Shown in pieces: positions 30,792 to 32,000 of a DNA stretch of 32,000 bases; the stretch's first letter is position 1, and every line of letters begins with the position of its first letter. Below the pieces are notes generated by a model. The model was not told where the DNA came from, ran no database searches, and saw nothing but the letters and a program-made list of their open reading frames with translations. A program made the position numbers and the translations under genes. The stretch covers positions 1,800,001-1,832,000 of the forward strand of contig NC_014033.1 in NCBI RefSeq assembly GCF_000025925.1. The letters run 5' to 3'. The stretch is from Xylanibacter ruminicola 23. Its GTDB lineage: Bacteria; Bacteroidota; Bacteroidia; Bacteroidales; Bacteroidaceae.

Positions 30792-31640
30792 TCAAATGGA
30801 AAGAATTTTGGATGCAATCCCAAAATCTTTCAAAAAATCAATAAAAGACTCAGCCTTCTCTTTACTTGAAGTAAAATCGCGGTTCGCTAATGATAATTTT
30901 CCATATTTTTTTGCACCCAAATTGTGGCATACAAGAATCTCAATTATGTTTATTTCCATAACACTAAGCCAATCCTTAACTTCATTTATATAGTCCATAA
31001 CACTATCAACAAATACGAACCTAAAGAATATGCTCTTGCCGCCAATCATCATTAGATGTTTCTTTATCTCATTTTGATAGTTGCTATCACTTAAATACAT
31101 CTCAGGTTGAATTTTTAGGTCTACTATATATGTATCAATAAAAGGATTTACTAATAATAAAGATTGATCTGGTGCAATTAATGATGTTTCTAATGCTATA
31201 TGCAATCCTTTCTCTTTTAAAAGCTCGAGGACACTAACCAAATTTTCAGACTGGAATAACGGTTCTCCTCCAGAGAAGGTTATACCGCCATTAGATTCGA
31301 TGTATAAAGATTGGTCTCTTAGCAAAATATGAAACAGTTCATCTGGAAGATAATCCCTTGATGTCTCCTCTGCAACTCCAAAAGGACAAGCTGTAATTGA
31401 GTTGCTCCCTTTATTTCTCTGACAGAGTTTACACAATTCAGAATGAACCCCTTTAGACAAAAGGCATTTACTATTATCAATAAACAATTCTTTTTCAAAA
31501 GAAATTGTTTCAGGATTACAACACCACGGGCAACGTAAATAACATCCCTTAAGAAAGACCGTTGTTCTCACTCCAGGACCGTCATATACACATCCCCTTT
31601 GGATATTGGTGACTCTAAGTTGCTTCATATACTTCAGCAC
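30792..31640 (-). CDS. glycyl-radical enzyme activating protein (radical SAM)
   Basis: DGPGVRTTVFLKGCYLRCPWCCNPE carries the CX3CX2C radical-SAM cluster motif. An additional Cys-rich ferredoxin-like insert follows (CLLSKG...CKLCQRN...ACPFG), then GGITFSGGEPL. An alternative start at 31628 (MKQLRV) is possible. Confidence 0.9.
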   Translation of the reverse strand: MLKYMKQLRVTNIQRGCVYDGPGVRTTVFLKGCYLRCPWCCNPETISFEKELFIDNSKCLLSKGVHSELCKLCQRNKGSNSITACPFGVAEETSRDYLPDELFHILLRDQSLYIESNGGITFSGGEPLFQSENLVSVLELLKEKGLHIALETSLIAPDQSLLLVNPFIDTYIVDLKIQPEMYLSDSNYQNEIKKHLMMIGGKSIFFRFVFVDSVMDYINEVKDWLSVMEINIIEILVCHNLGAKKYGKLSLANRDFTSSKEKAESFIDFLKDFGIASKILSI

Positions 31641-32000
31641 GTCGTATTAGATTATCTTTAAACGACTCTGGCAAATCATTAAAATAAGCACTAAAGCCCC
31701 AAACCCTTACAATAAGATTAGGATATTTTTCAGGATGAGCTTTGGCATCAACCAATGTAGCTTTATCCATAACATTAAGCTGTAATTCAAAAATACCGTT
31801 TGAACATGCATTTTTTAATATCCTCGTAAGCTTTTCTGACTCTTTTATATAAGAAGAAGGTATTATAAAATCTACCACATTGCCATTTATGCAATTATCA
31901 TTATAATGCAGCATTGACGAGAATTCTAATACCTCGGATATGTCTATTTTTGAAGTAAGAGGAGATATGTGAACAGCAAAGGGTTCTCCATTTAATCTCC
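31615..32000 (-). CDS. glycyl-radical enzyme (PFL-like), C-terminal 128 aa only; the gene starts beyond the window
   Basis: The frame stays open to base 32000, upstream of the ORF-track Met. The C-terminus LNVMDKATLVDAKAHPEKYPNLIVRVWGFSAYFNDL parallels the E. coli PFL glycyl-radical loop (PEKYPQLTIRVSGYAVRF). Confidence 0.85.
   Translation of the reverse strand, partial: RLNGEPFAVHISPLTSKIDISEVLEFSSMLHYNDNCINGNVVDFIIPSSYIKESEKLTRILKNACSNGIFELQLNVMDKATLVDAKAHPEKYPNLIVRVWGFSAYFNDLPESFKDNLIRRAEVYEAT

Follow-up and report, generated by a model that had tools for sequence, protein, structure and literature searches.

Background

Glycyl-radical enzymes (GREs) other than ribonucleotide reductase (RNR) are known from anaerobes as catabolic enzymes, including pyruvate formate-lyase (PFL), diol and hydroxyproline dehydratases, choline and sulfonate lyases, decarboxylases, X-succinate synthases and anhydro-sugar isomerases. 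To our knowledge, class III RNR (NrdD/NrdG) stands alone among GREs in having an established anabolic role and in cleaving a C-O bond on the sugar of a nucleotide. Here we analyzed a stretch of 32,000 nt from Xylanibacter ruminicola 23 (NC_014033.1, positions 1,800,001 to 1,832,000; hereafter the window), at the right-hand end of which a GRE gene and the gene of its radical S-adenosylmethionine (SAM) activase are followed by polysaccharide genes. As judged from sequence comparison, this GRE represents a distinct, N-terminally short clade (~670 aa) in the surface-polysaccharide loci of strict anaerobes, usually accompanied by glf and a candidate galactofuranosyltransferase gene. Gene order and natural fusion proteins showed a genetic coupling of the pair to the assembly and export of glycans, which in some organisms is also a physical one. 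We consider that the pair is probably, though by no means certainly, a dedicated glycan-biosynthetic GRE system that uses radical chemistry to cleave a C-O bond in a sugar building block, with galactofuranose (Galf) the likeliest candidate.

The GRE 1,2-eliminases, i.e., B12-independent glycerol dehydratase (GD, 1R9D), propanediol dehydratase (PD, 5I2G), HypD, HpyG (8ID1) and CutC, share with the window enzyme the ten-stranded barrel (TM 0.73-0.82), a single catalytic Cys with a Glu in a CXE loop, a C-terminal RVxG[FWY] glycyl loop and a dedicated PFLE/PFLC-type activase encoded next door by a gene overlapping the GRE gene. However, the window GRE has 664 residues compared with about 790-850, its N-terminus being ~100-130 residues shorter; its identity in structural alignments was only 16-22%, no curated cut-off was reached and it has invariant motifs of its own. 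Moreover, its family is found in biosynthetic glycan loci, not in catabolic operons or microcompartments. PflD and YbiW, the C-O lyases of 1,5-anhydromannitol-6-phosphate and 1,5-anhydroglucitol-6-phosphate (8ID0, 8ID7), are the only characterized non-RNR GREs acting on a sugar ring. Streptococcal PflD (8ID0) was the second-best sequence-profile match of the window family (1e-64). However, the family differs in the pocket region, having for example GDTGQ where PflD has FPTGY and HIS where PflD has GLS, and it is not placed like the catabolic PflD and YbiW, which are encoded beside phosphotransferase system and aldolase genes and act on free sugar phosphates. PFL (PflB/TdcE) belongs to the same superfamily and has the same glycyl-radical domain and activase type, but carries two adjacent Cys in its Cys loop, as against one in the window family (SACWE). 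Class III RNR would be the nearest functional analogy if the substrate of the window GRE is UDP-Galf; it showed no significant sequence relation to the pair beyond the radical-SAM core of the activase (NrdG models, 1e-10 to 1e-15). Moreover, RNR requires an external reductant, and its Cys loop is built differently.

On the export side, substrate-specific MOP/Wzx flippases are co-inherited with the genes of the decoration recognized by them, as in the case of pneumococcal TacF and choline. The Wzx of the window family is likewise co-inherited and co-evolving with a tailoring enzyme; unlike the TacF-type case, it is sometimes covalently fused to it (P0180, P0209). We know of no described Wzx fusion for GREs. 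The fold and the radical machinery are classical, and what is new is the functional clade, its glycan context and the unprecedented GT2 and Wzx fusions. Literature searches returned no paper linking GREs to glycan loci, although subscription journals were thinly covered and this absence is not proof. Likewise, a GRE superfamily review of June 2026 (PMC13450708) does not mention polysaccharides, capsules or glycosyltransferases. According to this review, the CXE motif is kept in all C-O-cleaving GRE eliminases and in the isomerases HplG, YbiW and PflD; its Glu hydrogen-bonds a substrate hydroxyl in all the solved eliminase and isomerase structures, and PflD and YbiW use it on the sugar C2-OH (PMC13450708).

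The glycyl-radical enzyme and its activase

Only the 3' end of the GRE gene lies in the window (the last 127 codons and the stop; 31615..31998, minus strand, in an open reading frame (ORF) that runs to the window edge at 32000). A first-pass annotation, made from the DNA letters alone, had read the end of this partial ORF as a glycyl-radical loop, and the translation and a Pfam match to Gly_radical (E=1e-14) bore this out. The 127 residues were free of stops and their C-terminal end was PEKYPNLIVRVWGFSAYFNDLPESFKDNLIRRAEVYEAT / AHPEKYPNLIVRVWGFSAYFNDLPESFKDNLIRRAEVYEAT. The C-terminus RVWGFSAYFNDLPESFKDNLIRR fits the GRE fingerprint RVxG[FWY]x6-8[FL]x4Qx2[IV]x2R, as given in the review (PMC13450708), with K in place of Q and L in place of [IV]. 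The rest of the gene was obtained from L001, a locus on a 3.58-Mb NCBI contig (GCA_019973335.1) that matched the window activase exactly and was identical to the window over all 11,209 overlapping nt. The full GRE gene (L001 8020-10014) encodes 664 aa and starts 1,609 nt past the window edge.

The full protein matched a PFL-like domain (PF02901, E=1e-57) and Gly_radical in Pfam. Its Gly loop reads RVWG(638)FSAYF; the Cys loop, GTSAC(334)WE(336)P, is encoded beyond the window edge and is of the CXE type with a single Cys. G638, C334 and E336 were at least 97% conserved across 81 family members (the L001 protein and those of the best 80 among 266 loci that encode the family in a scan of one genome per species, covering 185,579 species). 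Family-specific invariant motifs were GDTGQ (237-241), ACWEP, HIS (547-549), NGNVVD (575-580) and RVWGFSAYFNDLP.

The best NCBIfam match was the broad PFL2/glycerol-dehydratase subfamily TIGR01774 (197.8 bits, cut-off 678). All function-specific GRE models scored 6- to 20-fold under their cut-offs, including the PflD-like NF007437 (172 bits vs. 1109), HpfG (170 vs. 1000), HypD (163 vs. 1100) and CutC (151 vs. 1050), and NCBIfam holds no model for this GRE clade. When the family profile was compared with solved structures, HpyG (8ID1, 1e-69) and PflD (8ID0, 1e-64) were followed by HypD, CutC and GD, and the values for dehydratases, lyases and isomerases ranged from 1e-69 to 1e-56. Identity to the nearest characterized GREs was ~25% (25.6% to E. 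coli PflD and 24.7% to YbiW). A PFL identity was ruled out: the loop has a single Cys (SACWE) rather than a CC pair, TIGR01255 gave 50.4 bits against a cut-off of 994.2, and the PFL structure 1H16 was matched at 3.5e-17 in the C-terminal domain only, far from those values. An AlphaFold (AF2) model of P0001, a 67%-identical homologue standing in for the window protein, had a pLDDT of 91.3 and a pTM of 0.91 and superposed on CutC, PD, GD, HpyG and PflD with TM 0.73-0.82 at 16-22% identity. The GRE is thus best described as a real and apparently catalytically competent member of a separate deep clade within the CXE group. By motif it would fit the GRE 1,2-eliminase/isomerase class, and it falls in no characterized subfamily (GD/PD, HypD, HpfG/HpsG, CutC or PflD).

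The next gene (30792..31628, minus strand) encodes the GRE-activating radical-SAM enzyme, with 278 aa from the ATG at 31628 and Fer4_12/Radical_SAM matches in Pfam. It scored 173.6 bits against the GRE-activase model TIGR02494, marginally under the cut-off of 174.35. An alternative GTG at 31640 would extend the ORF to 30792-31640; in the alignment, homologues start at the ATG position. The overlap with the GRE gene is 14 nt from the ATG or 26 nt from the GTG, in agreement with the range given before. The CX3CX2C motif and the extra Cys cluster that the first-pass annotation had pointed out were both located: the motif reads GC-YLR-C-PW-C (C29/C33/C36 in the numbering of the 278-aa form), and the extra cluster is a ferredoxin-like four-Cys insert (C55, C66, C69 and C81). 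C29/C33/C36 were kept in 72 of 73 family activases. By contrast, the insert Cys were found in only ~19 of the 73, and most family activases (loci L007-L086) have the whole insert deleted, an alignment pattern from which we take it that the auxiliary Cys cluster is dispensable for activating this GRE clade.

Gene neighborhoods of the family

A word-indexed search returned 430 relatives, nearly all of 640-680 aa. In an exhaustive profile search over 1.84 billion representatives at 50% identity, ~100 representatives of 640-700 aa scored above ~330 bits, and canonical 800-aa GREs began at ~270 bits. The best 80 loci of the species scan came from Bacteroidales (Prevotella, Bacteroides, Muribaculaceae, Parabacteroides and Rikenella), Clostridia/Lachnospiraceae, Bacilli/Tenericutes, Eggerthellaceae, Aeromonadales and the termite spirochaete Breznakiella, and included 13 genomes of the archaea Methanobrevibacter or Methanobacterium. 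The closest relatives of the window's GRE locus were found in Bacteroidales metagenome-assembled genomes.

ORFs were called in the 81 loci and clustered by BLAST; 39 of these loci had at least 8 kb on both sides of the GRE gene (fully flanked loci). The activase gene was present in 73/81 loci (92% of the 39), immediately downstream of the GRE gene in 65 and within two genes of it in 71. Wzx was encoded in 59/81 loci (79% of the 39) and lay immediately upstream of the GRE gene in 45. After these two, glf was the commonest companion gene family. It occurred in 47/81 loci, always on the GRE strand, and within 10 kb in 29 of the 39 fully flanked loci (74%), a count that covers GRE loci only. Its usual gene position relative to the GRE gene was +2 or +3, or -2. 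Glf or DUF4422, which has the fold of the GT111 UDP-Galf transferases (PMC12269835), was found in 53/81 loci (79% of the 39); when a glycosyltransferase cluster named GT2b was included, the count rose to 64/81 (90% of the 39). At least one of 12 tallied recurrent glycan clusters was present in 73/81 loci and in 38 of the 39 fully flanked ones. The lone exception among the latter, L075, carried two IspD-like genes and an epimerase gene, which are outside the tally. Other recurrent clusters were GT2 enzymes, LicD, IspD-like cytidylyltransferases, Bac_transf, DUF2142 and DUF2304.

As read from Pfam matches, the gene order Glf-Wzx-GRE-activase-GT2-Acyl_transf_3...Wzy in L090 was a near-copy of that in the window, and L091 had the order LicD-GRE-activase-DUF4422-Glf. 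The GRE-adjacent Wzx proteins had a mean pairwise identity of 42% across phyla. Their identity tracked that of the GREs (Spearman 0.63), as did that of the activases (Spearman 0.83), and no second Wzx-like gene was present at any GRE locus examined. Given the recurrent gene order and a Wzx and activase divergence that follows the GRE, the unit wzx-GRE-activase, whether or not joined by glf, acts as a mobile module. A 322-aa protein without a family match, often encoded beside the GRE in Clostridia, was considered as a further core partner and discarded because it occurred in only 16 loci.

Natural fusion proteins

Several of the 50%-identity representatives were 990-1125 aa long. Pfam matches revealed an N-terminal GT2 domain fused to the GRE in P0160, P0169 and P0202, and an N-terminal Polysacc_synt (Wzx) domain fused to the GRE in P0180 and P0209. 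The P0160 cluster had 146 members, and its 988-aa form was present on dozens of contigs, one NCBI genome among them. The Wzx-GRE forms of 1125 aa and 1053 aa were each represented by three sequence variants from different assemblies. Their recurrence across contigs and assemblies shows that the fusions of GT2 and of Wzx to the GRE do not stem from isolated assembly mistakes. A further GT2-GRE protein, P0084, was discounted: it occurred on a singleton contig and has an internal GRE-type start (MMEFKK) at the junction, so that it may be a read-through, and the fusion argument therefore rests on the five proteins named above. The GT2 of P0084 and that of the window were 34% identical over 134 aa, a match confined to the generic N-terminal Rossmann part and thus uninformative.

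The fused GT2 domains belong to the same family as the free-standing GT2b (38-47% identity), which was encoded in 31/81 loci. The best curated matches of GT2b were rhamnosyltransferase and GlfT1 models, far under cut-off (GlfT1-like, 64.8 bits vs. 330). The fused Wzx domains fell in the cluster of GRE-adjacent Wzx proteins (42-51% identity). The Wzx-GRE fusion locus L094 had DUF4422 and Glf directly alongside. The GT2-GRE fusion loci L092 and L093 had ABC-transporter export, no Wzx, and Glf. In both of these, an 870-aa protein with Fer4, FrhB_FdhB_C and PS_pyruv_trans domains was encoded between activase and Glf (13809-16421 in L092 and 13809-16421 in L093). This protein beside the radical system is a predicted fusion of redox domains and a pyruvyltransferase.

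Linkage to the polysaccharide genes in the window

The GT2 gene directly downstream of the activase gene (29736..30743, minus strand; Glycos_transf_2, E=7.7e-27) belongs to a cluster, GT2a, found in 42% of the GRE loci. As noticed in the first reading of the sequence, it is on the same strand and only 48 nt away. This AT-rich spacer (30744..30791, minus strand) is the largest gap in the island: all 14 of 14 junctions between island genes had gaps of at most 48 nt, many of the genes overlapped and all were on the same strand. No terminator-like site or hairpin was found in 30744-30791. Sigma-70-like matches were at the shuffle background (11 observed, 11.0 expected), the promoter model being one that does not cover Bacteroidetes, and no Bacteroidetes-type TAnnTTTG box was found on the coding strand between 30700 and 31000. 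From this layout, the pair and the downstream glycan genes are likely co-transcribed. The AT-rich composition said to be shared with the island was evident as well: the GC content was 33-34% at the GRE, activase and GT2 genes and 33-44% over all genes from 17.4 kb to the window end, compared with 47-53% in the left half of the window.

One earlier claim had to be abandoned. The pair had been placed at the upstream end of the operon, which was an artefact of the window edge. On L001, a Wzx/Polysacc_synt flippase gene (482 aa; L001 6570-8018) precedes the GRE gene with a 1-nt gap, and glycan genes continue upstream, showing that the pair is located in the middle of the locus. The low-GC glycan locus reaches at least 10 kb further upstream on L001, with genes for a UGM-like flavoprotein, several ORFs without a family match, an epimerase, an NTP-transferase and a GHMP kinase upstream of wzx. 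The UGM-like gene (L001 5223-6509), directly before wzx, encodes a 428-aa FAD/NAD(P)-binding protein that matched TIGR00031 at E=1e-16, far below cut-off; the locus thus holds a true Glf plus a UGM-like paralogue, a remote relative of UDP-galactopyranose mutase. Two ORFs (287 and 152 aa) without Pfam or NCBIfam matches interrupt the sugar-nucleotide genes upstream of the GRE gene (L001 2312-3620), and neither had a counterpart in the other 80 loci.

Proposed reaction and alternative explanations

That glycan biosynthesis, in whatever form, is the dedicated task of the pair is very probable, an assessment that takes the explanation favored here together with the first two alternatives discussed below. 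The suggestion in the first-pass annotation that the pair tailors a polysaccharide precursor by radical chemistry gained support: the full-length enzyme stood apart from PFL, no terminator-like site and no promoter signal above background was seen between the pair and the GT2 gene, and the orthologues were linked to glycan genes and in part fused to them. As for its chemistry, we infer from the CXE motif and the nearest relatives that a thiyl radical abstracts hydrogen next to a hydroxyl and that the adjacent C-O bond is cleaved, in a dehydration or an isomerization. The substrate may be Galf, as the association with Glf, GT111 and the GlfT1-like GT2 suggests, if less strongly.

In the proposed mechanism, the activase, with SAM and a [4Fe-4S] cluster, would place a radical on Gly638, from which it would move to Cys334. 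The Cys334 thiyl radical would take a hydrogen atom from a carbinol carbon of the sugar building block, and Glu336 of the CXE loop would hold and deprotonate the hydroxyl. The neighboring C-O bond would then break as in GRE 1,2-eliminases and isomerases. The substrate could be UDP-Galf supplied by Glf, or a Galf residue that the lipid-linked repeat unit has only just received. The exocyclic C5-C6 diol of Galf is chemically like glycerol and 1,2-propanediol, and its dehydration would give a deoxy-carbonyl hexofuranose. The partner GT2 would install the modified sugar and the co-inherited Wzx would export the unit bearing it. An irreversible step after Glf would pull the unfavorable equilibrium from UDP-Galp to UDP-Galf. 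We advance this specific model of Galf dehydration only tentatively. Equally speculative is its fuller form, in which a membrane-proximal radical dehydratase/isomerase, in a complex with a GlfT1-like GT2 and a dedicated Wzx and in some cases fused to them, would convert Galf (UDP-Galf or lipid-linked Galf) to a deoxy-carbonyl hexofuranose as yet undescribed in glycans.

Several points weigh against radical C-O cleavage on Galf. Glf was absent within 10 kb from 10 of the 39 fully flanked loci, and four of these 10 also lacked DUF4422 and GT2b. Some of the Glf-less loci carried IspD-like and LicD genes, which point to polyol-phosphate or other units. The occurrence of glf in glycan loci in general, roughly 10-25%, is an estimate only, and the count in GRE loci lacks a matched baseline. 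No conserved reductase, aminotransferase or other keto/aldehyde-processing enzyme was found in the core module. Arylacetate decarboxylases presumably have a Glu at the second position past the catalytic Cys as well; in that case, the CXE motif does not prove elimination chemistry. The structure model is that of a homologue and was compared at the level of the fold, and the family is known here from genes, synteny, fusions and this model alone. In addition, the active sites of known GREs lie buried and accept small substrates, according to the review (PMC13450708). A nucleotide-sugar or lipid-linked substrate would be unusual for a GRE outside class III RNR.

A different possibility is that the product of the GRE is a small-molecule substituent. 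A free small diol, amino-alcohol or polyol (e.g., glycerol, 1,2-propanediol, or glycerol or ribitol phosphate) would be dehydrated or cleaved, and the aldehyde or ketone formed, or something derived from it, would end up on the polysaccharide as a non-carbohydrate decoration. Such substrates would suit the typically buried GRE pocket (PMC13450708), glycerol and propanediol dehydratases and CutC are among the nearest matches in structure, IspD-like and LicD genes occur in some loci, and the FkbH-like and ATP-grasp proteins of the window handle small acyl or polyol units. However, these accessory genes are not conserved with the GRE (IspD-like 9%, LicD 9%, FkbH-like in this locus only). The conserved partners are instead Wzx, Glf and glycosyltransferases, the fusions are to GT2 or Wzx rather than to an activating or ligating enzyme, and the family scored far under every curated small-molecule GRE model. 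We therefore regard a small-molecule role as unlikely, although it deserves to be kept in mind.

The close tie to Wzx, whose gene lies directly upstream of the GRE gene in 45/81 loci, could also mean that the GRE comes in at a late stage at the membrane, where it would work on the finished lipid-linked repeat unit or on a sugar other than Galf, in effect as a tailoring subunit or gatekeeper of Wzx. The link to Galf would then be incidental to the sample of taxa and loci. The co-evolution of Wzx with the GRE, the two independent Wzx-GRE fusion clusters and the 26% of fully flanked loci without Glf agree with this. However, Wzx is not obligatory, since L092 and L093 have ABC-type export and no Wzx, while their GRE is fused to GT2 and Glf is retained. 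A polyprenyl-linked oligosaccharide would also be very large for a buried GRE pocket. This proposal, which overlaps with the Galf explanation in that it too is a glycan-biosynthetic radical step, seems to us somewhat less likely again than the small-molecule role.

That an ordinary catabolic or central GRE (PFL, a diol dehydratase or a sugar-phosphate isomerase) was carried into an acquired capsule island and has no glycan role is very improbable. All characterized non-RNR GREs are catabolic according to the review (PMC13450708), and the island is foreign DNA of 33-37% GC, compared with ~48-50% in the host, that abuts an IS200-like gene. However, the same gene order was found in 81 loci from at least five bacterial lineages and Methanobrevibacter, and fusions to GT2 and Wzx exist. 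Transporter, aldolase, dehydrogenase and microcompartment genes of the kind that mark catabolic GRE operons were absent from the neighborhoods, and the enzyme is not PFL-like (single Cys; TIGR01255 at 50 bits against 994). Just as improbable is an oxygen-sensitive switch, in which cleavage of the glycyl radical by O2 would inactivate a GT2- or Wzx-associated scaffold and limit the capsule type to anoxia: glycyl radicals are oxygen-sensitive, the fusions couple the GRE physically to GT2 and Wzx and the genome scan found the family only in anaerobes, but Cys334, Glu336 and about 70 further positions were at least 97% conserved, including the pocket-type motifs GDTGQ, HIS and NGNVVD, as expected of a catalyst rather than a scaffold, and we know of no precedent.

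If the proposal of a glycan-biosynthetic radical step on a sugar building block is true, an anabolic role would for the first time fall to a GRE other than ribonucleotide reductase, and the superfamily would gain a biosynthetic function. It would also mean a new oxygen-intolerant sugar modification on the capsules and cell walls of abundant gut and rumen organisms, including Methanobrevibacter, which matters for phage receptors, for recognition by the immune system and for the serotyping of glycans. In the fuller form of the Galf model, a surface-sugar chemistry that is strictly anaerobic would have been passed on horizontally among Bacteroidales of the gut, Firmicutes, spirochaetes and methanogenic archaea. 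The Wzx-GRE-activase-Glf module and the natural GT2-GRE and Wzx-GRE fusions offer a testable entry point as ready-made constructs for biochemistry.

Other genes and features of the window

With Wzx, a Wzy-like protein, one GT2, three GT1/GT4 enzymes, glf and acyltransferases encoded in the same direction, the locus has the makeup of a Wzx/Wzy surface-polysaccharide locus; initiating transferase and export genes were not seen within the window and the L001 DNA. The remaining island genes are all on the minus strand. Downstream of the GT2 gene, an Acyltransferase_3 (O-acyltransferase) gene (28716..29719) is split into two ORFs of 228 and 131 aa that overlap by 79 nt. An intact 355-aa Acyl_transf_3 gene is present at the same position in the related locus L090, which suggests an apparent frameshift or pseudogene in the window. 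It is followed by a gene for a Wzy-like repeat-unit polymerase (27387..28712), a weak match (Wzy_C, E=4.7e-07; 30.1 bits, below the 31.7-bit cut-off). The variable part of the island (22613..27379) encodes ATP-grasp (26246-27379) and GINT1_N-like (25320-26234) proteins, a GT4, a 372-aa protein without a family match and a hexapeptide acyltransferase. Next comes glf, encoding UDP-galactopyranose mutase (21472..22602; GLF, E=1.6e-74). The distal end of the island (17434..21448) is made up of an FkbH-like HAD-IIIC gene (19595-21448, minus strand; 617 aa; TIGR01686 at 149.7 bits, just over cut-off) and two GT1/GT4 glycosyltransferase genes. From the FkbH-like, ATP-grasp and GINT1_N-like genes, there may be a substituent other than a carbohydrate (glyceryl or acyl); other GRE loci had no counterpart of these three genes.

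At the island edge near 17.4 kb, the GC content steps from 33-39% to about 48%, beside an IS200-like Y1 transposase ORF (16481-17317; Y1_Tnp, E=4.4e-06). No locus in the scan of species representatives was closer to that of the window than 57% identity. Together, the transposase ORF at the edge, the GC step and the lack of any closer locus are consistent with a strain-variable, horizontally acquired glycan island.

A second glycan cluster, of normal GC content (6282-12613), surrounds rpsP (11027-11569). It contains a Wzx-like gene (6282-7739, minus strand), a GT2 gene (7796-8785, plus strand), an ORF without a family match (8782-9897), a GT4 gene (9845-11017, minus strand) and another GT2 gene (11600-12613, plus strand). 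This cluster probably represents a glycan pathway conserved in the core genome, with no relation to the island. Between the two, a tandem repeat of 21 nt in 3.5 copies (98% matches; 14084-14156) lies in frame within an ORF of 1054 aa (13221-16385, minus strand), a candidate beta-galactosidase as read from its sequence without a family search. The repeat encodes TLNIKHE three times and could be a strain-variable insertion.

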